Below are positions 36,812-56,199 of a DNA stretch of 64,000 bases, one piece after another. Below the pieces are notes generated by a model that did no database searches, was not told the origin of the DNA, and saw only the letters and a list, made by a program, of their open reading frames with translations. Source of the DNA: a phage; sequence record PV467749.1. One strand, 5' to 3'. A program made the translations under genes and the position numbers. Position 1 is the first letter of the stretch. Every line of letters begins with the position of its first letter.

Positions 36812-37005
36812 AGTCTACCTTTTATGTCCCTTCGTAATTCTTGTAAGTATAGTTCGATATACTTTTCTTGATAGTTAGTTCCTATGAAAAGTTTCATAAC
36901 CAATTCACGCTTATATGCAATACCACGGATATGTGACATATGTAGGATATATGCCATGTTGGATATGAGTGTGTGGTTGTGCTCTTCTTGAGTTAAAATA
37001 CGCAT
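36808..37005 (-). CDS. family B (LGTNYQE-motif) small protein, first gene of array
   Basis: 65 aa; motif IGTNYQEKYI. Confidence 0.55.
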   Translation of the reverse strand: MRILTQEEHNHTLISNMAYILHMSHIRGIAYKRELVMKLFIGTNYQEKYIELYLQELRRDIKGRL

Positions 37006-37254
37006 AGGGACTCCATTAAAAATAATATCAATCCAATAATATACGATTCATATAAAAAGTCAATAACATTTTATAAGTAATACCCCTTTATCGAAGTCGC
37101 TAAGGTTACCCGCCCTTTAGCCCCCTACGCATTTTGCCATAGTCCAATCCCTTTTTATTCATAAAAGTCAAGGGATTACCTATGCATTTTTTTAACGCTG
37201 AAGTTTAAAAATGCCTTGACTTTTTTATGATTCAGTACTAAATCCTTTTACGCA

Positions 37255-37464
37255 TTAATCCTTCGTTACGCTTACGATTATCTGTGTATCCCCATAGTCC
37301 TGCCATACTTCCACGCCAGCCGTCGCCCTGGTTAGTCGTGCTGTCATCTGCTTAATGGTCTTAGGCTTTAGTGGAACCTGTTGCAGTACTGTACGCATAG
37401 CACTATCGACGTTATCATGTACGCCTGCAATAGTGCCTAGGACGCTGTATACTGTATAGAACAT
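37255..37464 (-). CDS. hypothetical small protein
   Basis: 69 aa; AGGAGG SD; intergenic hairpin AGGCCGC..GCGGCCT upstream. Confidence 0.5.
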   Translation of the reverse strand: MFYTVYSVLGTIAGVHDNVDSAMRTVLQQVPLKPKTIKQMTARLTRATAGVEVWQDYGDTQIIVSVTKD

Positions 37465-37532
37465 ATGTATGCCCTCCTGATATAGTTAAGGCCGCTACAA
37501 GGCGGCCTATGATGTTTGGTGATGTGTAACGC

Positions 37533-37934
37533 TTACAGTCCTAAGATAGTGCGTGCTTCGTTACGTTCCGTACACAGCTGCATGATGTGAGCAAGTAAGT
37601 CCTTGCTAATGTATCCGGTGTTCATAGCTTCACGAATAGATACATCATAAGCACCGAACCCAGTGCGAACGATACGCACATCATTCAGGTTAGTATTATA
37701 GATACCGCCGAGATCAACGGCTTCGAATACTACATCAACAGAATATTCATTGTTGCCATCGTGGAAGTTTTCCAGTGCAATAGTATTGGAAACCGCCCAA
37801 CGTTTGCAGTTTCCAATGATGCGGCACTGTTCCGGTTGGATAGTGCCATTACTTACAGCGTACTCCAGTGCATCTTTACCAAAAGTCCGAGCCAGTACTA
37901 AAACGTCAGCGAAGGAAGTGATTGAGAAGGTCAT
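37533..37934 (-). CDS. hypothetical protein
   Basis: 133 aa from ATG 37932-37934 (AAGGAG SD); track ORF extended through promoter. Confidence 0.55.
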   Translation of the reverse strand: MTFSITSFADVLVLARTFGKDALEYAVSNGTIQPEQCRIIGNCKRWAVSNTIALENFHDGNNEYSVDVVFEAVDLGGIYNTNLNDVRIVRTGFGAYDVSIREAMNTGYISKDLLAHIMQLCTERNEARTILGL

Positions 37935-37988
37935 GATAAAACTCCTTAATTTAGGAGGGAGAACCATTTCCCCCTCTCTATGTAAAAC

Positions 37989-38016
37989 ATTATACATGAA
38001 TCTAAGTACTATGCAA
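37989..38016 (-). promoter_or_regulatory. sigma70-like early promoter
   Basis: Minus-strand TTGCAT, 16 bp spacer, TATAAT; transcript start context TACAT. Confidence 0.5.
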
Positions 38017-38023
38017 GTACTTT

Positions 38024-38356
38024 TTACATTTTGATACCTGGATTCAGGTAGCGGTGAGATCCATACTCTGGATCGGTTTCGGTCCAGTACTGTAAATCGA
38101 TAGTACCTTTCGCGTTAATCTTGTCTACCAGCTTATTCATCTTAGCGTATACTACATCAGCATCGATGCGTTTAAAGCCAGTGGCTTTAGTGAAGTAGTA
38201 GTGATTTGCTTCACTATCATTCAGGATGTACCGAGAACCGTTTGCCGTTTGTGCGATAATGATTGAGTATTCTACGTTACGGTCGAGGCCGTCGATGAAT
38301 ACAGAGGAAACATTAGTACGGATGAATGCTTTAACGATAGCGATTGAAGTAGTCAT
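38024..38356 (-). CDS. hypothetical protein
   Basis: 110 aa; AGGAG SD. Confidence 0.55.
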   Translation of the reverse strand: MTTSIAIVKAFIRTNVSSVFIDGLDRNVEYSIIIAQTANGSRYILNDSEANHYYFTKATGFKRIDADVVYAKMNKLVDKINAKGTIDLQYWTETDPEYGSHRYLNPGIKM

Positions 38357-38409
38357 TTTGAATCTCCTAACTTTGTGGGCCGTCGCACCATTGCCGCCCT
38401 ACGAGATAC

Positions 38410-38438
38410 ATTATCGCAGTACTGATATACTTTGTCAA
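38410..38438 (-). promoter_or_regulatory. sigma70-like early promoter
   Basis: Minus-strand TTGACA, 17 bp spacer with CAGTACTG, GATAAT. Confidence 0.5.
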
Positions 38439-38560
38439 TACTTTTTTATTAATAGTTTTCACCCCACCAGCAGATAGTTACTCACCGTTATTAACTATAT
38501 ATTTTGGATACACCTATGCACCCTGTGGGCTAGTTTTTGTCTATGCGTATATAATAGCAA

Positions 38561-38584
38561 AGGGACTGACCGGAGTCAATCCCT
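38561..38584. terminator. bidirectional terminator inside repeated intergenic cassette
   Basis: Hairpin AGGGACTGAC-cgga-GTCAATCCCT with T7 on plus and U-rich tail on minus; 3' of gene 38602-38802. Confidence 0.5.
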
Positions 38585-38601
38585 TTTTTTATTCTTTTTT
38601 G

Positions 38602-38802
38602 TTAGATGATTCTCCAATCATCAACGATCATGGTAAGATACCGAACCAGTGATTCGAGTGATTCGTGTTCTCGATAGTCTGCCGCTCCACCAGCGGTACA
38701 AGTACAGCCGATTAAGCCGTTTTGTAGTTCCTGGATCTTTACGTCGATCTGGTTGGCTTTAGCTTCTTTCAGTACTGCAACCAGGGCGATAGCGATAGAC
38801 AT
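38602..38802 (-). CDS. hypothetical small protein
   Basis: 66 aa. Confidence 0.5.
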   Translation of the reverse strand: MSIAIALVAVLKEAKANQIDVKIQELQNGLIGCTCTAGGAADYREHESLESLVRYLTMIVDDWRII

Positions 38803-38892
38803 AATGTTTTACTCCAAACTATTGGCGGGAGAACTATTCCCCCGCTCTATGTAAAACATTATACATTACTGGTTAGTACTGTCAAATAGTTT

Positions 38893-39150
38893 TTATGAAA
38901 TATCTTCGATGTAGTCGGCCCATTTCATTTTTTCAGTACTGTCAATGGCGACCGGATTATTTGGATCAAACCATTCACCATCACCGCAATACATACCCAC
39001 GGCTACGGTTTTATAGCCATCCTGGGCAGTACACCACGACATTGCACGATAGATATGGCCTTTAACTGGTTGCAGTACTGGTAACGTTTTATGGTCTTCT
39101 ACGTAGGCCATAGCTTGTGGATTTACCCGATATTGTGTGAACTGATCCAT
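38893..39150 (-). CDS. hypothetical protein
   Basis: 85 aa. Confidence 0.5.
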   Translation of the reverse strand: MDQFTQYRVNPQAMAYVEDHKTLPVLQPVKGHIYRAMSWCTAQDGYKTVAVGMYCGDGEWFDPNNPVAIDSTEKMKWADYIEDIS

Positions 39151-39226
39151 TATGTTTCCCCTTGTAGTTAGTAAAGTTATTACATCAGTACTATCAAGCT
39201 ATGTCAATAGTACTGAAATAAAACTT

Positions 39227-39451
39227 TTAGATTAGATTATTGAGGCCGTCAATGGTAGACTCACCTTCTTCTTTCTCCCATTGTCGGTAGTACTTCCATG
39301 CTTCATGATAGGTGGCGATTAGTTCATCTTTTTGATCCTGGTTACATGCCAGTACTGAATCACGGTGAGCGGTGTTATAGATAGAATCGAATGATTTCTT
39401 CTCTTCTGCCAGGTTAGCTACTTCCCGCATCAGTTCATCAAAGTTAGCCAT
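39227..39451 (-). CDS. hypothetical small protein
   Basis: 74 aa; promoter and hairpin upstream. Confidence 0.5.
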   Translation of the reverse strand: MANFDELMREVANLAEEKKSFDSIYNTAHRDSVLACNQDQKDELIATYHEAWKYYRQWEKEEGESTIDGLNNLI

Positions 39452-39518
39452 TTTATTACTCCTTTTAGTGGGGGAGGATATCTCCCCCTATGCAAAACAT
39501 TATACTTTGTTTTAGTTA

Positions 39519-39782
39519 TTATGCAAGTACTTTTTTCATATAAACATTAAATTCTACACCGCCGTAACCTTCCACGATGATATGTTTTGCGTTATCACGT
39601 TTGCACATAGTGAAACCGTTGTTGATGTGTTCTGAATTTTCCAGGGCGACATCACCGATAGCGGCACATACAGCACTAATAACAGTATTCCGCAAAGTAC
39701 TGGTATCATTGGCGGTCATAGTAGTTTGCAGTACTACGTTGTCGTATACGTGTGCATTGATAGTGATTTCGATAGTGTTCAT
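39519..39782 (-). CDS. hypothetical protein
   Basis: 87 aa from ATG 39780-39782 (AGGAG SD); track N-terminus MFYIERGKWF is promoter and hairpin sequence. Confidence 0.55.
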   Translation of the reverse strand: MNTIEITINAHVYDNVVLQTTMTANDTSTLRNTVISAVCAAIGDVALENSEHINNGFTMCKRDNAKHIIVEGYGGVEFNVYMKKVLA

Positions 39783-39869
39783 GTTGTATCTCCTGGACTT
39801 GAGGGGAAACCATTTCCCCCTCTCGATATAAAACATTATACGTTAATCTAACTACAATGCAAGTACTTT

Positions 39870-40061
39870 TTAAATTTTATTTCCGATATAGTCCGGCATG
39901 TTCTTTTCAGTCATACGCTTTGCTAATGTCTGCATATGGCTTATAGCGTTCAAGGTGTCTTCCTCCAGGGATGAATCGAGATAATCAGGATCATTCTTCA
40001 CCTTGCAATGATTATGATAGCGTAGTACTGCCAGTACTTTTTTAACTTCTTCAACTGTCAT
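39870..40061 (-). CDS. hypothetical small protein
   Basis: 63 aa; ATGA overlap with upstream gene. Confidence 0.5.
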   Translation of the reverse strand: MTVEEVKKVLAVLRYHNHCKVKNDPDYLDSSLEEDTLNAISHMQTLAKRMTEKNMPDYIGNKI

Positions 40062-40330
40062 AATAAGTACTCCACTTCGTTAGCTTTCAGGTTAGTATCA
40101 ATCATCAATGGTTTTTTGTAGTTCACAAAACGATTAGTTTTTTCGATAGCAAATCCCATATAATCCAGCTTACTAACAGTACATTCATTCTTAAAAACTT
40201 CTTTCGCTGCATCGATGGCTGATTGCATGGATAACCGACCATCTAAATTAATGTTTCCAAATGATCCACCAGCAGAAGTAGGATTACCGTTCATATCTTT
40301 AATGATCATAGTAGCGGAGTAGCTGGACAT
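40058..40330 (-). CDS. hypothetical protein
   Basis: 90 aa; PeSL cassette upstream. Confidence 0.55.
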   Translation of the reverse strand: MSSYSATMIIKDMNGNPTSAGGSFGNINLDGRLSMQSAIDAAKEVFKNECTVSKLDYMGFAIEKTNRFVNYKKPLMIDTNLKANEVEYLL

Positions 40331-40352
40331 AATTTTGTTTCCTTTTATTGGT

Positions 40353-40411
40353 GGGGAGAACTATTCTCCCCTTGATGTAAACTATTATACAGTACTGATA
40401 TACTTTGTCAA
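40353..40411 (-). promoter_or_regulatory. promoter plus stem-loop cassette (PeSL-like)
   Basis: TTGACA 40406-40411, 16 bp spacer, TATAAT 40384-40389, then hairpin GGGGAGA-actat-TCTCCCC 40353-40371. Confidence 0.55.
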
Positions 40412-40417
40412 ATACTT

Positions 40418-40825
40418 TTATTCGCCCATATAGATTAGATTATCATCGCCTACATAGGGATCGCAAACGTTGATTTCTTCGCAGTACTTAGTGAATATAT
40501 CATCATAGTGACCGATATCACGATCCCAAAAACCAGTGCCGTGACCTTCGCGAGTAAGAAAGAGATCATGACCTGCATGACTATAAGTATAATCAGGATT
40601 ATGGTGTTTTTGTACTGTTTCCATATCTTCACCATGTACAGCAAGGAAACGTGAACATGCAATCACTGCCGCTTGATGGGCTTGCTCTGATAATTCATAA
40701 TCTTCCAGGTATTCGCCGTTCTCATTGTGTACTGTACTGAATTGCATAGCTTCAATGTAACCAGCGACCATTGCAGCATGATTTTTATCGTTGGCGATGG
40801 ACCGAGCTTGATTAGTAGTAGTCAT
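40418..40825 (-). CDS. hypothetical protein
   Basis: 135 aa; His-rich motif GHDLFLTREGHGTGFWDRDIGHYDD. Confidence 0.55.
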   Translation of the reverse strand: MTTTNQARSIANDKNHAAMVAGYIEAMQFSTVHNENGEYLEDYELSEQAHQAAVIACSRFLAVHGEDMETVQKHHNPDYTYSHAGHDLFLTREGHGTGFWDRDIGHYDDIFTKYCEEINVCDPYVGDDNLIYMGE

Positions 40826-40846
40826 GATTTTATTCCTTTTAGTATC

Positions 40847-40905
40847 GGGGAGAACTATTCTCCCCTTGATGTAAACTATTATACAGTACTGGTATACTTT
40901 GTCAA
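40847..40905 (-). promoter_or_regulatory. promoter plus stem-loop cassette (PeSL-like)
   Basis: Identical architecture to 40353-40411. Confidence 0.55.
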
Positions 40906-40908
40906 TAC

Positions 40909-41130
40909 TTAATTACGTTTAAAATGATATGTACCTTTATCATCCTGTACGCCCCATACTGATTTACCATTTAAACCAGTGAAGCCGGATTGTAATTCAA
41001 TATGGAAACCATTATTATCAACTACAAAAACTTTTTTATTTTCATCCCGATAGCATTGATATTCTTCACCTGCTTTAAATGCTGCATCATTCAGAAGATT
41101 TGAAGCGTGAACGCAGGTCATAGTAGTCAT
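40909..41130 (-). CDS. hypothetical small protein
   Basis: 73 aa from ATG 41128-41130; track ORF extended through promoter. Confidence 0.5.
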   Translation of the reverse strand: MTTMTCVHASNLLNDAAFKAGEEYQCYRDENKKVFVVDNNGFHIELQSGFTGLNGKSVWGVQDDKGTYHFKRN

Positions 41131-41317
41131 CGTCTTGATTCCTTTTAGTACTAGGGAGAACCATTTCCCCCTCTCGATATAAAACATTATACGCTCATTG
41201 AGATAGTTTGCAAGTACTTTTTTAAAAATAGTTTTCAGTACTGAATACTTATATAATAGATACACTTCCGCACCCTATGGGTCAGTGAGTTATCTCTCAA
41301 TGGATATATAATAGCAA

Positions 41318-41341
41318 AGGGACTGACCGGAGTCAATCCCT
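41318..41341. terminator. bidirectional terminator inside repeated intergenic cassette
   Basis: Same hairpin as 38561-38584, followed by T6; 3' of kinase-like gene. Confidence 0.5.
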
Positions 41342-41354
41342 TTTTTAATCTTTT

Positions 41355-41939
41355 TTATCGTGTTACCTTACTTGCTGCCACATCACGCTTTTTATAGTAC
41401 TGATTCCAGATATTGCAGGTTAAACCGTAATCAAGTACTTTAATAAGGCCATTACGATCCTGGCCGATATTCTGTTTTCTGATATCTCTTATCGTTAGTG
41501 TTGATAATGTATCATCGACGTGTTGTAGTGCATCAGCAAAGCGGTGCTGGCGTTCGATTGCATTACGTTTAATATTGTACTTTAATTCATTGCACGCGTT
41601 TACGTGCTTCACACTACCTTTGCTTGCAGTACTCAACCGATCCATAACGATAAACATATTATCAGGATCGCATAAATGCATATGCACCTTTGCAAAGTAC
41701 TGTTTCAACTGAGGGCGGTCATAGTCTAAAAAATTCCATACCTTACATTCAGTTTCATTTTGTTCTACACCCGCATCACAATTCGCGACCTTAATCACTA
41801 ACCGATCATTTAAAGCGAAAACTATACGGGAAGAACCAGCACCGATGATCTCCAGGCCAGCTAACCGACAAGCTGAAAGGATCTCTTTGTTGGTTTCCAT
41901 TTCTGACAGTGTACGGATGAATTTAGTATAATTACGCAT
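41355..41939 (-). CDS. protein kinase-like protein (minimal ePK/RIO/KdoK-like fold)
   Basis: 194 aa from ATG 41937-41939 (AAGGAG SD); motifs in order IIGAGSSRIVF, VIKV, RDIRKQN, VLDYG. Confidence 0.5.
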   Translation of the reverse strand: MRNYTKFIRTLSEMETNKEILSACRLAGLEIIGAGSSRIVFALNDRLVIKVANCDAGVEQNETECKVWNFLDYDRPQLKQYFAKVHMHLCDPDNMFIVMDRLSTASKGSVKHVNACNELKYNIKRNAIERQHRFADALQHVDDTLSTLTIRDIRKQNIGQDRNGLIKVLDYGLTCNIWNQYYKKRDVAASKVTR

Positions 41940-41970
41940 TGCATGTTCTCCTTGAGTTAATGAAACTATA

Positions 41971-42213
41971 TTACAGTACTTTACTATCAATGGCAACTAC
42001 TTTTTTAACATTAACGGCGTGGATCACTTCCTTCGTGTTTTTAGTACTGAATACTTTCGCCGCTCCTTGTTCGACCGTGATACGATAGCGACCATTAACA
42101 TCAACCATATTAATAAAGTCCGGCGTGCTGAATGGTGTTGTTTTACATTTGAGTACTGTTAACAGTTCCACCAGCGATGTAGTTTCTTTGATACGTTTTT
42201 CTAAAGTAATCAT
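41971..42213 (-). CDS. hypothetical protein
   Basis: 80 aa from ATG 42211-42213; upstream leader duplicated at 42490-42546. Confidence 0.5.
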   Translation of the reverse strand: MITLEKRIKETTSLVELLTVLKCKTTPFSTPDFINMVDVNGRYRITVEQGAAKVFSTKNTKEVIHAVNVKKVVAIDSKVL

Positions 42214-42270
42214 TTTGTTTCCCCCGTGTTGGTATGTACATATAGTACTAAAACATTTGAGTACTGTCAA

Positions 42271-42489
42271 TTAGATAATATTATATTTCTTAAAATAAAA
42301 TGCGTCCTGTGTTGGTTGATACTCAATTCCATTGCCGTTATTGACTTCAACTAATAAACCTTTGTCAATAAGTTTTTTAATAGTACGATACCCTTGTTGA
42401 AAATTGGTAAAATGTGAATCATTACGAAAGGTATAACCGTGCTTAACTGCTTCATCAATAGTTTTCTTTTCGATTTTAGATAATTTCAT
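42271..42489 (-). CDS. hypothetical small protein
   Basis: 72 aa from ATG 42487-42489; promoter TTGACA-17-TACTAT upstream. Confidence 0.5.
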   Translation of the reverse strand: MKLSKIEKKTIDEAVKHGYTFRNDSHFTNFQQGYRTIKKLIDKGLLVEVNNGNGIEYQPTQDAFYFKKYNII

Positions 42490-42542
42490 TTTGTTTCTCC
42501 CGTGTTGGTATGTGTACATAGTACTAAAACATTTGAGTACTG

Positions 42543-42797
42543 TCAACGTGATATTAGTTTTATTTTCTTATTGTATTGTTGATGCTCATAAAGGTTTATC
42601 TTTCCTGTGTTCTCGATTACTATCCTGTTGTTAGTGTCCACGTCGATTACACGCAGTTTCCCGTTGCTTAACTTCCTAGGTAATAGGTTACCATTAATAA
42701 ACTCATTAGCAAGCTGTACGGCCTTTGTGATGATTCTCTGAGGTGCTTTATAGTGTACCCGTAAGATGTTATCTTTATATAGTTGAACCTTAATCAT
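42543..42797 (-). CDS. hypothetical protein
   Basis: 84 aa. Confidence 0.5.
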   Translation of the reverse strand: MIKVQLYKDNILRVHYKAPQRIITKAVQLANEFINGNLLPRKLSNGKLRVIDVDTNNRIVIENTGKINLYEHQQYNKKIKLISR

Positions 42798-42804
42798 TTT
42801 GTTT

Positions 42805-42836
42805 GTCCGATAAAAAAGGCGGGAACTGATCCCGCC
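42805..42836 (-). terminator. intrinsic terminator
   Basis: Hairpin GGCGGGA-actga-TCCCGCC 42818-42836 with U-run on minus RNA; 3' of gene 42859-43254. Confidence 0.55.
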
Positions 42837-42858
42837 GTGTTGTTAGTACTGCAAGTTA

Positions 42859-43254
42859 TTAGATAACCTGGCGGCGTTTACTGTATACTGTTACACGATT
42901 ACCCTTACGATCATGTCGGATCTCTTTCTGGTTGCGAATCAGTTCACTTGGACGCTTAAGGTTTGCCAGGTGATCCGCGTGAGTCCATGCGGTGTGGTTT
43001 ACCTGTACTTTGATATCAGAATCAGCGATAAACTCATCTTGTGCGTCAAGTATTGCCGCCAGCATATCCGCTCGTTTTAGTTCTGCTGCTGTCAGTACTG
43101 GCTCAGGTGAATTCACAATATCAGAGATTTCTTTGAACTGTACGGCCCAGCGTTGACCTTTCGGTGCATCTTTGCCCATGTCTTTAAATGCTGCTCCTTC
43201 CTCGCGTGCAACAATACGGGCAGCTTCACGGGTAGCGTAGAATTTAGTAATCAT
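42859..43254 (-). CDS. hypothetical protein, paralog of 54841-55107
   Basis: 131 aa; shared N-terminal YFATRE.AR..AR..GA.FKDMG and C-terminal DRKGNRVTVY. Confidence 0.55.
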   Translation of the reverse strand: MITKFYATREAARIVAREEGAAFKDMGKDAPKGQRWAVQFKEISDIVNSPEPVLTAAELKRADMLAAILDAQDEFIADSDIKVQVNHTAWTHADHLANLKRPSELIRNQKEIRHDRKGNRVTVYSKRRQVI

Positions 43255-43349
43255 GGTATACATCCTATTAGTTAAGTTAGTACTACAAGTTAGAGTCTAT
43301 TATAAAGTACTATCTGGACAGTGTCAAATAGTACTTTAAATGGATTCTA

Positions 43350-43673
43350 TTACATGTCTTTCTTACGTTTTACATCGTGGTAGCGAACTGTAATTTCTTT
43401 GTTGATCTCTTCCTCGATGCGGTGAATAACTTTTTCTTTCGGGTTGAAACCTATAACGGTTTCTTTAATGATCTCCAAGCCCGTGTATTCGCCTTGTGTA
43501 CCGTAACCGTATGTAAAGGTTTCGTGTCCCAGGTCTTCCCAGCGATCACCAATCAATGCGGACACGTAGCAGGAGTGGTAAGTATTGCCGTGGCTATCAG
43601 TCCACCGATTAACTTTAATGTCAAAGGAGGTTACAATTTTCAGTTCTACTTTCTGGGTAAGGATCATAGCCAT
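43350..43673 (-). CDS. hypothetical protein, paralog of 49861-50184
   Basis: 107 aa; shared RWTDS.GNTYHSC.VS and TYGY; C-terminal VKRKKD. Confidence 0.55.
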   Translation of the reverse strand: MAMILTQKVELKIVTSFDIKVNRWTDSHGNTYHSCYVSALIGDRWEDLGHETFTYGYGTQGEYTGLEIIKETVIGFNPKEKVIHRIEEEINKEITVRYHDVKRKKDM

Positions 43674-43696
43674 TTTTATTTCTCTCTCTTTGTTAG

Positions 43697-43757: not shown

Positions 43758-43760
43758 TAC

Positions 43761-49186: not shown

Positions 49187-49459
49187 TTACCCTTTTAAGT
49201 ACTGGATTAAGTAGTCTTGTTGATCTTCGGTGATTGCCGCCATCTTCCCTAGTACTGGATTAATGATATAATCCCCGGTAACGTCCTGTAACGCATTCTC
49301 AGGCGGTGAAACGGCTGGGGTAGCCATAGCCATCGCCTGGACTTGTTCGACGCTGTATCGCTCATATAGGCGGCATTCTTCCGGTGTTAACATAGCATCA
49401 GTACGCTTCATCGGTTTAATGATGCTTTCGATCTCATTCAGTACTTGATTAACGTTCAT
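49187..49459 (-). CDS. hypothetical protein
   Basis: 90 aa. Confidence 0.5.
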   Translation of the reverse strand: MNVNQVLNEIESIIKPMKRTDAMLTPEECRLYERYSVEQVQAMAMATPAVSPPENALQDVTGDYIINPVLGKMAAITEDQQDYLIQYLKG

Positions 49460-49510
49460 GGTATAATCCCCAATATAAGCGGCCTGAATCGACCGCTAAC
49501 GATGTTTTGA

Positions 49511-49780
49511 TTAATAGGTGTATGGTTGACGCTCAAACAATGATTGCACGTTGTACGCCCCGCTTATGGGCTTCGCTGGTAAATCAATTTTATATTGTTC
49601 ACGCTTAAAGATAATAAAACGGCAATTGTTTTTAACATCAAAATTGATTGAACGTTCCAGGAGTTTTCCATCGTGCACAAATACAAGATAACCGCTTGCT
49701 ACTTGTTTTGTAGTACTGGTTGCAACCATAGACCGCCGAACATGTGTACCTGCGTCGATTAAAGTACTGATATTTTTCAT
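49511..49780 (-). CDS. hypothetical protein
   Basis: 89 aa. Confidence 0.5.
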   Translation of the reverse strand: MKNISTLIDAGTHVRRSMVATSTTKQVASGYLVFVHDGKLLERSINFDVKNNCRFIIFKREQYKIDLPAKPISGAYNVQSLFERQPYTY

Positions 49781-49860
49781 TATACGATCCTCTTAAGTTA
49801 ATTTAATTTCTTTCCCCTATGCAGACACTATATCAAAGTATCTGCATAAAGTAAAGCTAA

Positions 49861-50184
49861 TTAAAGATCTTTTTTGCGTTTAACATTCTGTACAGTACAA
49901 TGCAACGGGATATTAAGATCATTGCACAAACGAGTAAGGGAGGTTTCATCAGTATTAAGCCCGTCTACTGATTCCTTTAAGAGAGATAACGCCGTTTGTT
50001 GATATGCATCTTCATAGCCATAAGTAAATGATTCAACCGCCAGATCATTCAAACCGTTATCCAGTTCAACGCTTACATGACAAGAATGATAAGTATTGCC
50101 ATATGAATCAGTCCAACGTTTACCGTCAACATTGATTGCACGGATTGCAGCCAGGGAAACGGTGTTAATGATAGTTTTAGCCAT
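49861..50184 (-). CDS. hypothetical protein, paralog of 43350-43673
   Basis: 107 aa; shared RWTDSYGNTYHSCHVS and TYGY motifs. Confidence 0.55.
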   Translation of the reverse strand: MAKTIINTVSLAAIRAINVDGKRWTDSYGNTYHSCHVSVELDNGLNDLAVESFTYGYEDAYQQTALSLLKESVDGLNTDETSLTRLCNDLNIPLHCTVQNVKRKKDL

Positions 50185-50273
50185 TTTTGTATTCCTTAAA
50201 TTAATATGTTGTCTTGATAAAATCTATTATGCCAGTACTATCAAACTATGTCAATAGTACTGTGATAATATTT

Positions 50274-50417
50274 TTACTTACTTTTTGCTTTCTTTGCTGC
50301 TTCCACCTGGTCGGCCCATTCTTTACCCCATACTTGTAAATTATAATGGTACTGGCAAAGAGCAACGCCCCGCTTTAAACCAGTAATAGATTTCTGACCA
50401 CATTGACAAGTTTTCAT
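50274..50417 (-). CDS. hypothetical small Cys-containing protein (below ORF-track cutoff)
   Basis: 47 aa ORF read by hand (MKTCQCGQKS...); PeSL cassette upstream. Confidence 0.4.
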   Translation of the reverse strand: MKTCQCGQKSITGLKRGVALCQYHYNLQVWGKEWADQVEAAKKAKSK

Positions 50418-50502
50418 TTTAGTTTCCTTGTAGTGGGGAGAACCATTTCTCCCCTTGATGTAATGTATTATACTTTATTCGATTTACTTTGCAAGTACTT
50501 TT

Positions 50503-50730
50503 TTAATTTAATTCATCAAGGCAAAGGATACGCTCAACGCCCAAATCAGTTAAACTAATCGACGGCACTTGATAGGTTTCAATGTATGCTACACTTGCCC
50601 ACTGACCGAACTCATTAACGGCCCAGGTATTCATTGCATTTTGCAATTCCGCACCTTCCTTGTTGGTAATGACTGCAACTACTTGTTCGTTGCCAGTAGT
50701 ACCAGATACGCGAGTAATGATAATAGCCAT
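50503..50730 (-). CDS. hypothetical small protein
   Basis: 75 aa from ATG 50728-50730; track ORF extended through promoter. Confidence 0.5.
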   Translation of the reverse strand: MAIIITRVSGTTGNEQVVAVITNKEGAELQNAMNTWAVNEFGQWASVAYIETYQVPSISLTDLGVERILCLDELN

Positions 50731-50962
50731 TGTTTTGATTCCTTTGATTTTGAAGGAGAACCGTTTCCCCCTCTCGATGTAAAACATTATACGCTAATCT
50801 CTTAATCGTGCAAGTACTTTTTATTACTTTTTGCAAAATACTTTAAACGCTCTCAATCGCGTTCTTACAGCCTTAACGCCACCAGCTAGGGCAATGCATC
50901 AGATAATCAGTTTAATGCGTTAGAATCGTTTCTAGGCGGTGCTGGTGGCCTGGTAAACGATA

Positions 50963-50994
50963 AACACAAAAAAGCCCACCGTTTAAGGTGGGCT
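50963..50994 (-). terminator. intrinsic terminator
   Basis: Hairpin AGCCCACC-gtttaa-GGTGGGCT 50973-50994, U-run on minus RNA, 3' of gene 51016-51498. Confidence 0.6.
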
Positions 50995-51015
50995 AGTGAT
51001 TCAGTACTTTAATTG

Positions 51016-51498
51016 TTATGCTTCAACTTTGCGATGAGCTTCGATCCATTCCTCGCGAGTCATACCACTGGAGTTAATCGCGTCCAGTACTACCGCAATA
51101 CAGTTACCACGCACCGGAATCAGATATTCTTCCCCGTTGTCCAGTACTACCGCTACGCGTTCCTGAATCCATTTTTTGGCTTTTACTTCTGGCTTGTCTT
51201 CCCCATACTTAACCGCCAGGGCTTTTTGTGCCATCTCTGTAACTACTTCCAGATCCAATCCAACTACTGCCGCCTGAATACTTTCGATTGTTGCTTGTAG
51301 TTCTGCTTCACGGGCCGCCTTTGCCGCTTCAATTTCTGCCGCTTTATTTGCTTGTAGTTCTTTCGCAGTACTGTACGCGATGTTAAAATTATTGCGTACC
51401 GCTTTCATGGTATCGTTATCCAGTTCAGCCAGGATCTCAGCCGCTACGTTAGTTTCATTTGCTACCAGTGCTTTGATGAATGATTTTACATTAGCCAT
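51016..51498 (-). CDS. hypothetical Ala/Glu-rich protein
   Basis: 160 aa from ATG 51496-51498 (AGGA SD); promoter TTGACA-16-TAGAAT upstream. Confidence 0.55.
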   Translation of the reverse strand: MANVKSFIKALVANETNVAAEILAELDNDTMKAVRNNFNIAYSTAKELQANKAAEIEAAKAAREAELQATIESIQAAVVGLDLEVVTEMAQKALAVKYGEDKPEVKAKKWIQERVAVVLDNGEEYLIPVRGNCIAVVLDAINSSGMTREEWIEAHRKVEA

Positions 51499-51697
51499 TT
51501 TATAAATCCTCAATTAAAGTTTAGTTTACGTTTATTAGTGTATCAAAGTTTTCTCGACGTGTCCAGTTTTTCGTTCGACTTACTGGCGGTCTACTTAGTG
51601 CTCCCCGTCTTGATGTAATACATTCTACGCTTTTCTGCGGTAATGTCAACTACTTTCTTAAAACTATTTTCAAAGTATCTCAGTACTACGATACTAC

Positions 51698-51724
51698 AAA
51701 AACAAAAAAGCCCACCAGGTGGGC
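51698..51724 (-). terminator. intrinsic terminator
   Basis: Hairpin AGCCCACC..GGTGGGCT 51708-51724 with U-run on minus RNA, 3' of gene 51732-51962. Confidence 0.55.
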
Positions 51725-51731
51725 TATGTAC

Positions 51732-51962
51732 TTAATCAGTGAGTAAAATATTAAACACTTTACCATTTAACGTTATTGGTGCACTGCTACCAGGCTCAAG
51801 ATCCGTTAATATACCTGCAATCGCTTTATCATTGGCGACCTTTCCAGTGTCCAACAGTACTACAGTACTGATAAGATTAACGCTCGTTTCAATATCATAA
51901 TGCACGGCGTTAAGTAGTTGTGTAGTACTGCTTTCGTTAAGTAAAACAATTCGCTTAGTCAT
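51732..51962 (-). CDS. hypothetical small protein
   Basis: 76 aa. Confidence 0.5.
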   Translation of the reverse strand: MTKRIVLLNESSTTQLLNAVHYDIETSVNLISTVVLLDTGKVANDKAIAGILTDLEPGSSAPITLNGKVFNILLTD

Positions 51963-51983
51963 GATGTTACCCCGTAGTATCTA

Positions 51984-52283
51984 TCAACGGCAATTAATAA
52001 CGCCGGTATGCGTTACTTTCTCAGTATCCATTACAGTGACCGAACCGCGTTTAGTACTGGCATCATAATAAATTGTTGTGCTACCGTTTTCGTCTTCTTC
52101 ATGGAACGGGCCGTTTTTAAATGCTTCCGGCTGGATCTCTAAATCCTTTAATACAATCTCGCCAGTACTTTCATCGGTCATTGCAACAGTGCACTGAATG
52201 AATTTTTCACTACTTACATCTAATGACGCATTAACAGCGAAAGAGGAAACAGATAAAGCCAGGGCGATGATTGTAATTTTCAT
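51984..52283 (-). CDS. secreted or periplasmic protein with signal peptide
   Basis: 99 aa from ATG 52281-52283; N-terminus MKITIIALALSVSSFAVNA then S. Confidence 0.5.
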   Translation of the reverse strand: MKITIIALALSVSSFAVNASLDVSSEKFIQCTVAMTDESTGEIVLKDLEIQPEAFKNGPFHEEDENGSTTIYYDASTKRGSVTVMDTEKVTHTGVINCR

Positions 52284-52389
52284 TTGATTATCCTTAGTTA
52301 CCAGGGGAACCGCTCCCCTATGCAAAACATTATACGCGTTTAAAAACTAATTGCAAGTATTTTAATAAAAAGTATTTGAAAAATAATTG

Positions 52390-52418
52390 TTGACAACTGC
52401 ATCCAGTACTGGCATAAT
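52390..52418 (+). promoter_or_regulatory. plus-strand sigma70-like promoter, antisense to gene array
   Basis: TTGACA 52390-52395, 17 bp spacer with CAGTACTG, CATAAT 52413-52418. Confidence 0.45.
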
Positions 52419-52499
52419 TACTACATCAAGACGAAACAGTCACTAACCCACCGGGTGCCGAGATCCGTCTATTAAATGATTCAGTACTGAAAAAGTAAC

Positions 52500-52518
52500 G
52501 GGGAGTTATTATCTCCCC
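52500..52518. terminator. bidirectional terminator
   Basis: Hairpin GGGGAG-ttattat-CTCCCC; U-rich on both strands; 3' of minus gene 52525-52746 and of the short plus transcript. Confidence 0.5.
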
Positions 52519-52524
52519 GCGTTG

Positions 52525-52746
52525 TTATTTTGTAAGGTATAAACAGAAGTCGCCTTTATTTGCTACGCCGCCAGTGTAACGCGATGAATAGTTAGAAACG
52601 TCCTGGACTTCTGCTATTACCAGGGTATCATCATTCAATTCGTCGCAGAAGCAAACGGCTGGATCTTGTACGCCGATTTTGTCGGCATGTTCCCGCATAG
52701 ATTTAACCAGTGCTTCCAGTTGGGAAAGAGTAGTGATATTAGCCAT
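52525..52746 (-). CDS. hypothetical small protein
   Basis: 73 aa from ATG 52744-52746; track ORF extended through promoter. Confidence 0.5.
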   Translation of the reverse strand: MANITTLSQLEALVKSMREHADKIGVQDPAVCFCDELNDDTLVIAEVQDVSNYSSRYTGGVANKGDFCLYLTK

Positions 52747-52832
52747 TTTATTTTCCTCATTACCAGGGAGAACCATTTCTCCCTTTGATGTAAACCATTA
52801 TACAGTACTGAAAACTAATTGCAAGTACTTTT

Positions 52833-53093
52833 TCAATATTGTTTGTCGTCGTCTTCCTCGATGAATTGACCGACGAAATGATCTACTTTCGCTTTGAGGC
52901 TTTTATAATCTTCTTCTACTTCCTTTAAACGTTCCTGGTAGTATTCCAATGCTTCAAGATACGCCGCCTCAGCAGTTTTTGCACGCATGGCTAAATTCAT
53001 GCCACGCGTTTCATCAAATAGCCAATAACCATCGGTGCACTGGCTAATAGATAATGTCTTGCTTAGTGCTGTATAGCTAATTACTTTACTCAT
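52833..53093 (-). CDS. hypothetical protein
   Basis: 86 aa; charged helical C-terminal half; GAGGG SD. Confidence 0.5.
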   Translation of the reverse strand: MSKVISYTALSKTLSISQCTDGYWLFDETRGMNLAMRAKTAEAAYLEALEYYQERLKEVEEDYKSLKAKVDHFVGQFIEEDDDKQY

Positions 53094-53150
53094 TAGATAA
53101 CCCTCAGTAAAGGCGGGAACTATTACCCGCCATTATCTCAGTACTGAATA

Positions 53151-53390
53151 TTACATTCCAACCATTGCAGCACGGATCGCAGTAGTGCTATATTTGAATC
53201 CGTCCGGCGTTGTAGTAGTACCGTTGGCTTTTAATCTGCGGTACATACATTCCGCAGCAATATCTTTAGTTCTACTTTGTGCGATGCAACTTTGTGCAAG
53301 CCGATACAATGACTCACCGTTATTAATCCAAAGGCTTACATTCCAATGAGTTTTGTTTTTGTGTCCGTTGTAAGTTTTAGTACTAGCCAT
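53151..53390 (-). CDS. hypothetical protein, paralog of 55196-55435
   Basis: 79 aa from ATG 53388-53390; shared HKNKTHWNVSLWINN and PDGFKYSTTAIRAAMVGM. Confidence 0.55.
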   Translation of the reverse strand: MASTKTYNGHKNKTHWNVSLWINNGESLYRLAQSCIAQSRTKDIAAECMYRRLKANGTTTTPDGFKYSTTAIRAAMVGM

Positions 53391-53480
53391 TTTTAAATCC
53401 TCGTTTGAGCGGGGAACCACTCCCCGCCTTGATGTAAAGTATTATACGCTTTTAAACTTAGTTTACAAGTACTTTTTAAA

Positions 53481-54092
53481 TTAATATTCGATTGATTCCA
53501 CTACGCCATCAATAACATTGAATTGATATTCGTTACCCTCAATCAGTGCAGTAATGTTTTCAGTAGTGAATTGATCCTCATATGCATTCTCTAAATCACG
53601 GTACAACTTACGAGATAATTCACGGATCGCATCAGTCAGTAAGTTTTCCAGGTCATCAGCAAGTGCCGCTTGTTTTACAGTTAAATCAGTGTAGCGAGTA
53701 TCAACGCAACCGCTTACCGTGTTTTCGTGTGCGTAGCGAGAGTGTGAACGTTCTACACTCATTGCCAAATCATCTTCATTCAACAAGTGACGGATTGAAC
53801 GATATTTCGTTAACGCCTTAACCTTGCGTAAAAACTTCTCAGCGTCAACGTGGTTAGTACTGATTGATGCACCGTCACCTTGCGACCAAAAACCACTGTA
53901 TTGCAATTCAGCTTCATCTATGCCGTATTCTGGTAGTACTGTTTCTTTATAGTACTCGATAACGCCCTCAGCAAAGAAATTATCCTCACATGAACGCTCA
54001 CGATCCCGAACCAGTTCGATAGCCGCCGTTTTTTGTTCTGCGTTCAGTTCAGAAAAAGCCATAACAAAAGTAGTAGTAGTGATAGTTTTCAT
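53481..54092 (-). CDS. hypothetical protein
   Basis: 203 aa; motif YSGFWSQGDGASIS; no family recognised. Confidence 0.55.
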   Translation of the reverse strand: MKTITTTTFVMAFSELNAEQKTAAIELVRDRERSCEDNFFAEGVIEYYKETVLPEYGIDEAELQYSGFWSQGDGASISTNHVDAEKFLRKVKALTKYRSIRHLLNEDDLAMSVERSHSRYAHENTVSGCVDTRYTDLTVKQAALADDLENLLTDAIRELSRKLYRDLENAYEDQFTTENITALIEGNEYQFNVIDGVVESIEY

Positions 54093-54160
54093 TTTGTAAC
54101 CCTCATTCAGTAGTTGATGTAAGTATTATACGCTTTTAAAAACATTTGTCAAACTATTTT

Positions 54161-54235
54161 ATCAGGGGAGTTTTTCGTGTGCCTTACTCCTGGGCTACTT
54201 AACGGGAAGTTACTTATTTCGTTCCCCGTCCTGAT
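54161..54235 (-). ncRNA. candidate structured RNA element between tandem promoters (copy 2)
   Basis: 75 nt duplicate of 44375-44447; inner stem CGGGAA..TTCCCG replaces CGGGG..CCCCG. Confidence 0.3.
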
Positions 54236-54316
54236 GTAAAACATTATACGCTTATTGAGATAGTTTGCAAGTACTTTTTAAAAATAGTTTTCAGTACTGA
54301 ATAGTAAAAAAAAGTA

Positions 54317-54345
54317 TTGACAGCATTATCAAGTACTGGCATAAT
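54317..54345 (+). promoter_or_regulatory. plus-strand sigma70-like promoter
   Basis: TTGACA, 17 bp spacer with AGTACTG, CATAAT; followed by the ACCCACCGGGTGC box. Confidence 0.45.
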
Positions 54346-54522
54346 ATACCCCATGACAACAGCTAACCCACCGGGTGCACAATTGTAACTATACTAAACT
54401 AATTTTTCTATAGATACACTCCCGCACCCTATGGGCTACGGCTTATCTGCCAATGAATACATTATGCCAGTACTGACAAAATAAGTCAATACCGGCAATT
54501 GTAAATTTTTCAAAAAATATGA

Positions 54523-54753
54523 TTATACTGCAATCGCGTCCAGGCTGTAATAATAATAAGTGCCGTATTGGTGTACTTTATTACCTTTTATTTCAGTACT
54601 GAATGAATCCGAACGATTTGCATATGATGTTAATTTAAAGTACTTTGATTTGCTGATACGTTGCCATACACCACAGATCCGCTGTAAGTAAGTAGTTTTA
54701 TTCGTGGTCGTATCTTTTACGGTTTTAACTTCAGTCATATACATATTAGTCAT
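54523..54753 (-). CDS. hypothetical small protein
   Basis: 76 aa; PeSL cassette upstream. Confidence 0.5.
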   Translation of the reverse strand: MTNMYMTEVKTVKDTTTNKTTYLQRICGVWQRISKSKYFKLTSYANRSDSFSTEIKGNKVHQYGTYYYYSLDAIAV

Positions 54754-54840
54754 TTTTATTACTCCAGGTTATAGGCGGGAAGAGTTCCCGCTCTCGATGT
54801 AAAACATTATACGCCTTTAAACATAGTTTGCAAGTACTTT

Positions 54841-55107
54841 TTATTCAAGTACTGCAATCTTTTTAGTACGGTACACGGTCACGCGGTTGCCCTTTCGGTC
54901 GAGCTTTATTTCTACCACTCGACGCGATACACTATCGGGACTTTTTAAGGCCGCTAACCAGTACTGTAATGATCTGGCGGTACTACGCTTTACAATGGCC
55001 CAACGTTTACCACGTTCCGATTGTACGCCCATATCTTTAAACGTTGCCCCGTCCTGGCGTGCGGCGATCCGAGCTTGTTCACGCGTCGCAAAATACTTAA
55101 TATTCAT
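54841..55107 (-). CDS. hypothetical protein, paralog of 42859-43254
   Basis: 88 aa from ATG 55105-55107. Confidence 0.55.
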   Translation of the reverse strand: MNIKYFATREQARIAARQDGATFKDMGVQSERGKRWAIVKRSTARSLQYWLAALKSPDSVSRRVVEIKLDRKGNRVTVYRTKKIAVLE

Positions 55108-55195
55108 GCTGTTGCCCTTATCGTTGGTGTATGAATAAAACACTATTATAAAGTACTATCCCCGTGCAATAGTACTTTAAATAAATTCTATTCTA

Positions 55196-55435
55196 TTACA
55201 TTCCAACCATTGCCGCACGGATCGCAGTAGTGCTATATTTGAATCCGTCCGGTGTTTTATCTTGTCCAGTCTGTTCTAAAAATAACATCATATGACGGGC
55301 CGCATCATTGCGATTAGTGCTATCGTTAATAAAGTCCTGGGCCAACCGGTATAATGATTCATCGTTATTAATCCAAAGGCTTACATTCCAATGAGTTTTG
55401 TTTTTGTGACCTAAGAACATTTTTGATTTAGCCAT
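55196..55435 (-). CDS. hypothetical protein, paralog of 53151-53390
   Basis: 79 aa from ATG 55433-55435. Confidence 0.55.
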   Translation of the reverse strand: MAKSKMFLGHKNKTHWNVSLWINNDESLYRLAQDFINDSTNRNDAARHMMLFLEQTGQDKTPDGFKYSTTAIRAAMVGM

Positions 55436-55528
55436 TTTTTTAATCCTCTTATATAGTGGGGAACTATTCCCCACCTGATGTAAAACATTATACGCTTTTA
55501 AACTTAGTTTGCAAGTACTTTATTAAAC

Positions 55529-55891
55529 TTATTTGTAAATTTTGCCACTTTCTACCCATACCAGGAAACGAGGCATATTATCCCATGCATCTTGCTTTAA
55601 GTTTAAGCCGTGCAATTCCTCAGTTGTTGCCATGCCTGGGACTGGTTTACTATACACCGAGAATTTTTCGCCCATGTACTGATAAACCATCGTCAAATCA
55701 CTGGCGATCATCTTATGGATCATCGCATCAAGCATCACGGTCGCGGCGTATTGTTCACGCTTAAGCGGCAGCATTTTAATCAGTTCGCGGTATGCGTCAA
55801 TGTGAGTTTTAACCGTTGCCGCCGGAAGATCTTTCATCTCGTCGCGGAAGTTAACCAGGTTAGCAATAATTTTGGTGATTTGAGTCGCCAT
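55529..55891 (-). CDS. hypothetical protein
   Basis: 120 aa from ATG 55889-55891; track ORF extended through promoter. Confidence 0.55.
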   Translation of the reverse strand: MATQITKIIANLVNFRDEMKDLPAATVKTHIDAYRELIKMLPLKREQYAATVMLDAMIHKMIASDLTMVYQYMGEKFSVYSKPVPGMATTEELHGLNLKQDAWDNMPRFLVWVESGKIYK

Positions 55892-56199
55892 CGTTTTAAT
55901 CTCTCTTAAAAGTGAGTTAGGAGCGTTTCCCCCGTCTCGATGTAAAACATTATACGCCTTTAAACATAGTTTACAAGTACTTTCTACAAATACTTTTAAA
56001 ATAGTTTTCTTTCTATATAGGGAAACTATCATTCAGTACTGAATCAACCAAATCACTACTACACCCCGTAAAACGGCCTCAATCGCATTCTAACGCATTA
56101 TTACACCTAAGCTATACATTTGCACCATTCTAATCATTCCAGTGCGTTACGGGCCGTTTAAACGCGTTAAATTATTTTCAATTATTTTGTTTTTAGGTA

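Follow-up and report, generated by a model that had tools for sequence, protein, structure and literature searches.

The locus considered here raises the question of why so many small phage genes should each be preceded by the same short regulatory unit. The window, a stretch of 64,000 nucleotides of phage DNA (sequence record PV467749.1), carries between about 37 and 56 kb an array of small minus-strand genes, many of them behind a cassette in which a σ70-type promoter is followed by a GC-rich hairpin. A preliminary description of the window had likened these cassettes to the promoter–stem-loop (PeSL) elements of T4-type phages. PeSLs, as described in RB49 and phi1, join σ70-like early promoters to stem-loops built of a G run and a C run and lie in hyperplastic regions (PMC2839356). 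Here we argue that the cassettes belong to a long direct terminal repeat (DTR), that their hairpin is an element of leader RNA rather than a terminator, and that the cassettes serve as joints in the exchange of genes.

The scan for −35, −10, and hairpin that the preliminary description had proposed as its check bears out the existence of the cassettes. In our strict version, two hexamers 16-18 nt apart had to agree with TTGACA or TTGCAA and with TATAAT at five or more of their six positions; across the whole window this gave 82 minus-strand and 25 plus-strand matches. Within 37000-57300, the minus strand holds 50 promoters and 27 promoter–hairpin pairs. In 100 dinucleotide shuffles, promoters averaged 6.0 and never exceeded 12, and promoter–hairpin pairs averaged 0.27 and never exceeded 3; no such pair occurs on the plus strand anywhere in the window. 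Eleven of the minus-strand promoters match the consensus at 12 of 12 positions and about 40 at 10-11 of 12, with AAAAAGTAC or similar upstream, so that near-consensus σ70 promoters with an AT-rich upstream region, as in the PeSL definition, are found here. The enrichment in a looser scan is modest (95 versus 63) because that scan accepts 9 of 12 matches, and the signal sits in matches of at least 10 of 12.

A cassette of about 80 bp comprises, in order, an A-rich/AGTAC upstream element, the −35 hexamer (TTGACA or TTGCAA), a 16-bp spacer, TATAAT, a conserved start context (..TTTACATC..), the hairpin, an A-rich linker, a Shine–Dalgarno (SD) sequence, and ATG. We count 24 canonical cassettes, all on the minus strand and supported by the strict scan and its shuffles, and the earlier figure of at least 18 was thus an understatement; all 17 hairpin positions listed at that time match a real hairpin, with offsets of at most 8 nt. 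The spacer had been given as 16-17 bp and is 16 nt in 23 of the 24 canonical cassettes and 17 nt in one, but it ends in CAGTACTG in about one third of them, which is less than the "often" first claimed. The geometry downstream is similarly regular, with 12.0 +/- 1.3 nt from the end of the −10 hexamer to the start of the stem and 19.5 +/- 2.3 nt, occupied by the A-rich linker and the SD sequence, from the end of the hairpin to the ATG. The 24 hairpins have stems of 7-9 bp, loops of 3-5 nt (not 4-5, as originally stated), and a mean folding free energy of -11.5 kcal/mol. Their 5′ arms are G/A-rich and their 3′ arms C/T-rich, and a PeSL-type G run, loop, and C run is thus joined to the promoter. 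The statement that most genes of the region, or indeed every small gene, have such a cassette went too far: a promoter lies within 130 nt upstream of 33 of about 50 predicted genes, and a full cassette precedes 24.

The preliminary description missed that the array coincides with a terminal repeat. The best match to the window is fEgEco12, with 97.8% identity, and the source is, by sequence, an Asteriusvirus-type (Rak2-like) jumbo coliphage. Position 57573 of the window aligns with base 1 of the records of fEgEco12, vB_Ec-M-J, CRJP21, and BF17, which begin at the genome end, and the DTR ends of fEgEco12 (20,993 bp) and vB_Ec-M-J (annotated, 21,525 bp) both map to about 37103. The 20,993-bp end in fEgEco12 is backed by PhageTerm and by restriction digests (PMC13070987). 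The stretch 37103-57573 is therefore, by homology, a long direct terminal repeat of about 20.47 kb with minus-strand genes, and it contains every cassette. The repeat encodes about 50 small predicted proteins of 29-203 residues, mostly ORFans. Pfam searches yielded a GNAT acetyltransferase, a DksA/TraR zinc finger, and a weak kinase match, the other DTR proteins being left without assignment. At coordinates below 37103, rightward in the reading direction, genes overlap by 4 nt and there are no cassettes.

The same confinement appears when the hairpin or the whole cassette is used as a query. A covariance model of the hairpin matched the window 20 times at E<=0.1, always within 37948-55482 and in minus-strand orientation; the other ~43 kb had no match. 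BLAST with one cassette, run with a search space matched to that of the database search, found 9 places in this DTR, 11-12 places in the records of 121Q, PBECO4, and slurp01, which apparently contain a single DTR copy, and 19-23 places in records in which both copies appear to be present, the copy number of each record being inferred from these counts alone. Such numbers leave little room for copies elsewhere, and genome-wide the cassette family seems to be largely confined to the DTR.

Several features of the repeat and its borders are recorded here as observations in their own right. The DTR is richer in G+C (0.37-0.40) than the unique DNA on either side (0.31-0.35), and gene organization changes sharply at the repeat boundary near 37103; just beyond it, in 35000-37005, genes of ~65-90 codons are chained by 4-nt overlaps (ATGA) and have no promoters of their own. 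At the other end, the first ~1.5 kb of the DTR (55900-57573) is essentially gene-free, has at 56667-56765 an array in which TAGCCGTC recurs about 12 times with an 8-bp period, and holds several plus-strand promoters of a second type, class C, described below; the array and these promoters may be terminal, packaging, or injection signals. An Rfam search (E<=1) over 36.5-58.5 kb found nothing relevant, with only a sub-threshold match to FuFi-1, and a search for tRNA and tmRNA genes found none.

What, then, is the hairpin? Because the stem starts ~12 nt after the −10 hexamer, the hairpin lies inside the transcript of its own cassette for any plausible start site. If transcription begins, as predicted, at the A of a conserved CAT that lies 8 nt past the −10 hexamer, 4-5 unpaired nucleotides would precede the stem, and the hairpin would begin at about +4 to +6. 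The 8 nt that follow the stem contain on average 1.6 T in the 24 canonical hairpins, in A-rich sequence with no U tract. A terminator scan called none of the 24, although it did call the true terminators and the class C hairpins of the same region. Judged at the level of sequence, the canonical hairpin is not an intrinsic terminator.

The comparison of hairpins among genomes points in the same direction. The 166 cassettes of the window and six relatives (7 genomes in all) reduce to 52 distinct hairpins, whose stems show compensatory changes such as GGGGAGAA/TTCTCCCC, GTGGGGAA/TTCCCCAC, GCGGGAA/TTCCCGC, GGGGGAG/CTCCCCC, and GGGAAGTA/TACTTCCC. Counted hairpin by hairpin, with both wobble types treated alike, the stems include 17 G.T but only 2 A.C pairs. 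In a model-based alignment, 98% of cells are in a standard pair and five of eight pairs have changed on both sides (73 cells), and none of 500 shuffles matches any of the observed pairing or covariation measures. A covariance-model alignment leans towards its own model, but the independent per-hairpin count agrees with it. The lack of a U tract, the compensatory changes, and the tolerance of G.U but not of A.C together indicate an RNA leader element rather than a terminator, and the substitution pattern shows that the hairpin is under selection as sense-strand RNA. A MAFFT alignment of 37 leaders submitted to RNAalifold was set aside; it yielded no structure, because stems and loops of differing length left the arms misaligned. 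The purine-first build of the stem hints at an additional constraint, for which promoter escape, the masking of an SD-like tract, and a trans-acting factor are candidates.

Related genera keep the promoter more faithfully than the hairpin. The DTR of Klebsiella phage Muenster (Alcyoneusvirus) shares this promoter style and has about ten leader hairpins at the same position, with stems unrelated to those of Asteriusvirus (for example, GGGGATAC/GTATCCCC and GAGATTCCAG/CTGGAATCTC). In a Yersinia Eneladusvirus, the promoter style is kept and a hairpin is found in only one or two leaders. Since the hairpin is patchy both within the DTR and across genera, it is dispensable for early expression, an optional leader module that has expanded in Asteriusvirus.

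The second role of the cassettes emerges from comparison of the DTR with six relatives as collinear BLAST chains. There are 42 distinct indel breakpoints, 29 of which fall inside cassette intervals that make up 20% of the DTR (binomial p=8e-12). At four loci (cassettes 55514, 50254, 48752, and 46865), a gene of 217-277 bp is present in a relative but absent from the window; the alignments to its left and right share 39-80 bp of one and the same window cassette, which indicates that the extra gene of the relative is flanked by two cassette copies. A three-way alignment reveals cassette 55514 to be a hybrid of the two copies that flank EcMJ_002: its left part corresponds to the upstream copy and its right part to the downstream copy, with the switch point within a 66-bp block common to both.

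Traces of such exchange extend beyond the genus. A blastn search with one cassette also matches Vequintavirinae and Justusliebigvirus phages, and phage A73 (Vequintavirinae) contains a 1.7-kb mosaic of window modules with 76-89% identity; these correspond to window positions 54.2, 50.8-50.3, 47.1, 55.4, and 47.4 kb, appear in a different order, and are joined in cassettes. Inside the DTR there are three dispersed pairs of paralogues (53151-53390/55196-55435, 43350-43673/49861-50184, and 42859-43254/54841-55107), with amino-acid identities of 67%, 39%, and 35%. Five of their six members have their own σ70-like promoter, none being called upstream of 54841-55107, and one paralogue family is also present in A73. 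The comparison shows the cassettes in the role of recombination joints, with modules shared between phage families.

The explanation that we favor, and consider probable overall, is that the DTR is an "ORFanage" of about 50 small genes, about half of them behind cassettes, in which the hairpin is an RNA leader element and the cassettes double as portable homology. Host RNA polymerase would fire the cassette promoters immediately upon DNA entry, and the hairpin would be transcribed as part of the leader of its own cassette. There the stem-loop would protect or insulate each message and its ribosome-binding site, such that any gene behind a cassette would be expressed independently of its context. 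The 60-80 bp common to the cassettes supply the portable homology, and recombination between cassettes, as the genome comparison shows, deletes, inserts, duplicates, and reorders gene-plus-cassette modules, including exchange with the unrelated Vequintavirinae coliphages. Within this scheme, the function assigned to the hairpin, leader protection or insulation that gives context-independent expression, is the more tentative part, and we regard it as possible rather than probable.

A number of observations weigh against the scheme. The strict orientation of the stems, with 236 G-C and 11 C-G pairs (G on the 5′ arm in the former), is unaccounted for by a purely structural role. The hairpin stands on only about half of the DTR promoters, is rarer in Alcyoneusvirus, and is nearly absent from Eneladusvirus. 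RppH needs only 2-3 unpaired nucleotides, and RNase E readily scans past simple orthogonal stem-loops (PMC9943677; PMC3997798), so that pure 5′-end protection is doubtful for a hairpin with 4-5 unpaired 5′ nucleotides; the transcript start, 7-8 nt after the −10 hexamer, is itself a prediction from sequence. As for recombination, the breakpoint statistic is weakened because indels inside genes are selected against; viable indels end between genes anyway, and the statistic alone is no proof of cassette recombination. Finally, cassettes that are neighbors do not resemble each other significantly more than those far apart (0.684 versus 0.657, permutation p=0.11).

Other explanations of the hairpin have to be weighed against these points. 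It is unlikely, in our estimate, that the stem-loops act as in the classical PeSL, terminating or attenuating upstream transcription and leaving each gene mainly on its own promoter. A terminator role was proposed, with reporter support, for the RB49 stem-loops (PMC2839356); terminators are rare between DTR genes, so that read-through must be frequent; and four class C units (38579, 41336, 44601, and 48287) do have a hairpin over the −35 hexamer and spacer, followed by TTTGCTATTAT, that is called terminator-like. The canonical hairpins, however, run into the A-rich sequence described above where real terminators have T5-T6, their geometry is unlike that of RB49, and a strong terminator in a gene's own transcript would abort the mRNA of that very gene. 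Similarly unlikely is that the hairpin is the site of a trans-acting RNA-binding protein or endoribonuclease that switches off, processes, or times early messages. In T4, RegB/S1 and RegA act on early messages as a class, and a common tag on about half of the early messages would permit coordinated control here. The constraint also extends beyond pairing, in that the 5′ arm is always purine-rich with G at its base, in Muenster as well, and many stems read GGAG followed by AAUAG, with stem plus loop often GGAGAAUAG, close to the RegB consensus GG*AGRAYARAA (PMC3014915). Yet the loop sequence is not conserved (ATGG, TAG, CGG, ATGA, AAAC, ATATC), the stem sequences are wholly different between genera, and secondary structure protects against RegB (PMC3014915). 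A tblastn search with T4 RegB, moreover, gave only records of <=172 kb (T4-type, shorter) and no jumbo phage among the 25 matches listed of 1138.

We give less credence still to the idea that the purine-rich 5′ arm serves, as initial transcribed sequence, to help RNA polymerase escape from near-consensus promoters, with the 3′ arm masking the SD-like tract (GGAG/GAGG) from ribosomes. The T5 N25 promoter, from which polymerase escapes well, does have a purine-rich initial transcribed sequence (..GAGAGAGGAG..), and escape would account for both the fixed position by the start site and the strict purine-arm-first orientation, but the hairpin-less promoters of the same DTR are equally near consensus and lack the G tract. 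That the repeats have no RNA function and are relics of tandem gene duplication, similar by descent, or else a DNA cruciform or recombination hotspot, seems very improbable. Several neighboring cassettes are indeed 85-92% identical, and there are paralogous genes in the DTR; most genes behind cassettes are nevertheless mutually unrelated, genera whose stems differ have the hairpin in the same place, and neither a cruciform nor neutral decay would be expected to produce compensatory changes and the excess of G.T over A.C pairs.

The canonical cassettes, all on the minus strand, are distributed over the DTR as follows, in the reading direction. The first, at 55436-55514 (hairpin 55455-55475), precedes the gene 55196-55435 and is the hybrid junction discussed above. 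It is followed by the cassettes at 54754-54833 (hairpin 54775-54791; gene 54523-54753), 53391-53468 (hairpin 53408-53428; gene 53151-53390), 52747-52824 (hairpin 52765-52784; gene 52525-52746), and 52284-52356 (hairpin 52302-52320; gene 51984-52283). Two modules are common to phage A73, namely those of the cassettes 50731-50813 (hairpin 50752-50773; gene 50503-50730) and 50418-50494 (hairpin 50435-50454; gene 50274-50417). Then come 48903-48981 (hairpin 48922-48941; gene 48756-48902) and 48675-48752 (hairpin 48693-48712; gene 48522-48674), the latter duplicated around an extra gene in phage A4, and after these 48086-48165 (hairpin 48107-48123; gene 47618-48085), 47536-47614 (hairpin 47555-47573; gene 47194-47535), and 47098-47179 (hairpin 47120-47139; gene 46885-47097).

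In the second half of the array, the cassette at 45514-45588 (hairpin 45531-45549; gene 45325-45513) is the one with a 17-nt spacer and has TATAGT as its −10 hexamer, and that at 45240-45316 (hairpin 45257-45276; gene 45027-45239) has TGGACA at −35. The cassettes 44940-45018 (hairpin 44961-44977; gene 44766-44939), 43944-44026 (hairpin 43967-43986; gene 43761-43943), 43674-43757 (hairpin 43697-43715; gene 43350-43673), 41131-41213 (hairpin 41153-41172; gene 40909-41130), 40826-40905 (hairpin 40847-40865; gene 40418-40825), and 40331-40411 (hairpin 40353-40371; gene 40058-40330) lie further on. The last four are 39783-39862 (hairpin 39801-39822; gene 39519-39782), 39452-39526 (hairpin 39470-39488; gene 39227-39451), 38803-38885 (hairpin 38825-38845; gene 38602-38802), and 37935-38016 (hairpin 37955-37976; gene 37533-37934). 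Two of these cassettes are the source of false N-termini, as the preliminary description had recognized: MFYIERGKWF (open reading frame start 39836) comes from the cassette 39783-39862 and MYNVLHREG (start 37997) from 37935-38016, the ATG in each case lying inside TATAATG or CATGTATAATG.

Other promoters of the minus strand depart from the canonical form. A degenerate cassette at 55892-55976 (TTGTAA N16 TATAAT, with the imperfect hairpin GACGGGGGAAACGCTCC) precedes the gene 55529-55891, and a variant at 38357-38438 (TTGACA N17 GATAAT), upstream of the gene 38024-38356, has a different and larger leader hairpin. Promoters without a hairpin include the 12/12 consensus promoter at 54125-54152 (gene 53481-54092) and further consensus promoters at 45978-46005 (the GNAT gene, 45592-45948), 44339-44366 (gene 44030-44305), and 43299-43327 (gene 42859-43254). 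Two more are duplicated around an extra gene in relatives: 50226-50254 (TTGACA N17 CATAAT; gene 49861-50184) in vB_Ec-M-J, and the consensus promoter 46838-46865 (gene 46650-46793) in CRJP21, Turkey3, and A4. By way of contrast to the cassette hairpins, an intrinsic-terminator-like hairpin with a T run lies at 46618-46643 on the minus strand, and further terminator-like hairpins are found at 50973-50994, 51709-51725, 42818-42836, and 52498-52520.

Two other types of repeated unit share the DTR with the cassettes. In class C, present in ten copies, a promoter, often with a terminator-like hairpin over the −35 hexamer and spacer, drives a non-coding leader. This leader contains a short hairpin with a covarying stem of 3-5 bp (GAC/GTC, CGC/GCG, TGAG/CTCA, TGGC/GCCG, CCAC/GTGG, and others) and a purine-rich loop (GAGAAA, GCGAAA, AGATAA), followed by nearly invariant CCCAYNGGGTGC and TGTATCTAT. 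The unit at 38506-38592 on the minus strand has the terminator-like hairpin (GGGATTGACTCCGGTCAGTCCC), TATTAT, and CCCACAGGGTGC..TGTATC, and the minus-strand units at 41258-41349, 44528-44614, and 48209-48300 are built alike. Variants occur on the minus strand at 46514-46600, after the terminator 46618-46643 and with a CATAAT promoter and the CCCATAGGGTGC element, and at 54412-54495, and on the plus strand at 54317-54390, 52390-52470, 56200-56279, and 56410-56495. Some copies form convergent pairs, as do 54412-54495 and 54317-54390, and both Klebsiella phage Muenster and Yersinia phage fHe-Yen9-03 have the element in conserved form. With two small hairpins close behind its promoter, it recalls nut/put-type elements, a resemblance that we offer only as a lead.

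In class D, a strong promoter leads into a conserved, non-coding leader of ~85 nt, after which come a second promoter and the gene. The leader is marked by ..GTAAG(G/A)CA(C/T)ACGAAAAA.. and by ACATCAGGACGGGGAAC..CCCGTTAAGTAG..CCAGGAGTAAGACATACGAAAAACTCCCCTGAT. Units lie on the minus strand at 54165-54270 and 44378-44482, with a divergent copy at 51545-51649; a further copy of the element is at L007 5893-6010, and phage A73 has one with 89% identity. Single-sequence folding gave the class C and class D leaders weak z-scores (-0.3 to -2.7, with a range of -2.7 to +0.6 for class D), and neither element had a match in the Rfam search of 36.5-58.5 kb (E<=1).

The window is also rich in the palindrome AGTACT, with 274 copies in 64 kb where about 21 would be expected (12.8-fold), often extended to CAGTACTG. 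Copies occur in all three codon phases and in non-coding DNA, and relative to related phages the substitution rate is 2.3-3.4% inside AGTACT and 5.5-8.4% outside. In early promoters, the motif occupies two fixed sites ~20 bp apart, AAAAAGTAC|TTGCAA and CAGTACTG|TATAAT, and both placements are kept in Alcyoneusvirus and Eneladusvirus. Two stretches, about 22001-29999 and 32001-37000, are free of AGTACT, and GTAC is still common in one of them. We found no description of AGTACT enrichment in Asteriusvirus or its relatives in the literature outside subscription-only papers.

More speculatively, and with a doubtful prospect of being correct as a whole, the cassettes could be a plug-and-play standard for early expression in unrelated large enterobacterial myoviruses (Asteriusvirus, Alcyoneusvirus, Vequintavirinae, and Justusliebigvirus), by which host-takeover genes move through homologous recombination in co-infection; the hairpin and the AGTACT boxes flanking the −35 hexamer would then be recognized by dedicated phage factors, which would shut down the whole class once the early phase is over. 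Short of that, the leader-element reading extends the PeSL idea, that of regulatory cassettes doubling as recombination joints, from T4-like to Rak2-like jumbo phages and links them to one particular part of the genome, the long terminal repeat, which probably carries immediate-early host-takeover genes. The stem-loop part is apparently re-purposable, serving here as a leader RNA element under structural selection and not as a terminator. Gene-plus-cassette modules in Vequintavirinae point to a specific path, open to testing, by which genes pass from one unrelated coliphage family to another, annotators gain a rule for mending false N-termini in such regions, and the cassettes themselves would be compact, strong, ready-made expression units.

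The 5′-terminal stabilizing stem-loops of the Escherichia coli mRNAs ompA and papA, reportedly described by Emory, Bouvet and Belasco in 1992, are similar in that a stable stem-loop stands near the 5′ end, upstream of an accessible ribosome-binding site, but they act with almost no unpaired nucleotides before the stem, whereas 4-5 are predicted here. Blocks of small early or host-takeover genes behind strong host-sigma promoters are found in the terminal repeats of other phages, such as the terminal redundancy of SPO1 and the pre-early region of T5. The DTR of PA5oct, a distant relative, is likewise a long terminal repeat of many small genes of unknown function, and these are strongly transcribed early (PMC7318152). 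Standardized leader hairpins and promoter units acting as recombination joints do not feature in the descriptions of these three phages that we consulted. In the record of Yersinia phage fHe-Yen9-03 (Eneladusvirus), the depositors marked −35 and −10 hexamers gene by gene in the first ~20 kb, and RpoD-like promoters are described in the early region and terminal repeat of CBB (PMC5259590). Both thus share with the window σ70 promoters before most small genes at the genome start, whereas the leader hairpin, its covariation, the role as indel joint, and the sharing with Vequintavirinae are undescribed in the literature searched. Indeed, the literature outside subscription-only papers yielded at most RpoD-like promoters, and no description of the cassettes, for Asteriusvirus or related phages, and the literature that we searched has no report of PeSLs outside T4-like phages.

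The RB49 stem-loop lies mostly between the −35 and −10 hexamers or over the −10 hexamer, where it has a terminator role (PMC2839356), and in PST and nt-1 (PST/T4 and nt-1/KVP40 comparisons) it lies just upstream of the promoter (PMC4122927). When 49 kb of RB49 were scanned with the script used for the window, stem-loops were found at +5..+23 from the start of the −35 hexamer (TTGACA GGGGATCACCGATCCCC TATAAT) or spanning the −10 hexamer, and none downstream of it. The stem-loop of the window, in contrast, stands ~12 nt downstream of the −10 hexamer in the 5′ untranslated region, lacks the terminator signature, and shows selection at the RNA level; only the four class C units have an RB49-like geometry. 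The cassettes are also gathered in one block, the DTR, where PeSLs occupy several hyperplastic regions, and they belong to a Rak2-like jumbo phage and not to Straboviridae. No sequence similarity to RB49 PeSLs was detected: the hairpin covariance model had no significant match in 49 kb of RB49, which include the PeSL-rich region, and blastn with a cassette matched no T4-like phage. In position of the stem-loop, terminator signature, type of phage, and sequence, the likeness first proposed therefore does not hold. It does hold for the rest: both are repeated intergenic units of ~60-80 bp that pair a near-consensus σ70 promoter with a stem-loop of G run, loop, and C run; both stand before small ORFan genes in a plastic region dense in indels relative to related phages; and the junctions of insertions, deletions, and replacements lie in cassettes and are flanked by cassette repeats, at the points where genes are gained, lost, and reshuffled, much as PeSL–PeSL recombination causes indels and mini-circles (PMC2839356). 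The cassettes are thus a variation on the PeSL mechanism known from T4-like phages, one in which the original observation is confirmed and its PeSL interpretation partly supported.

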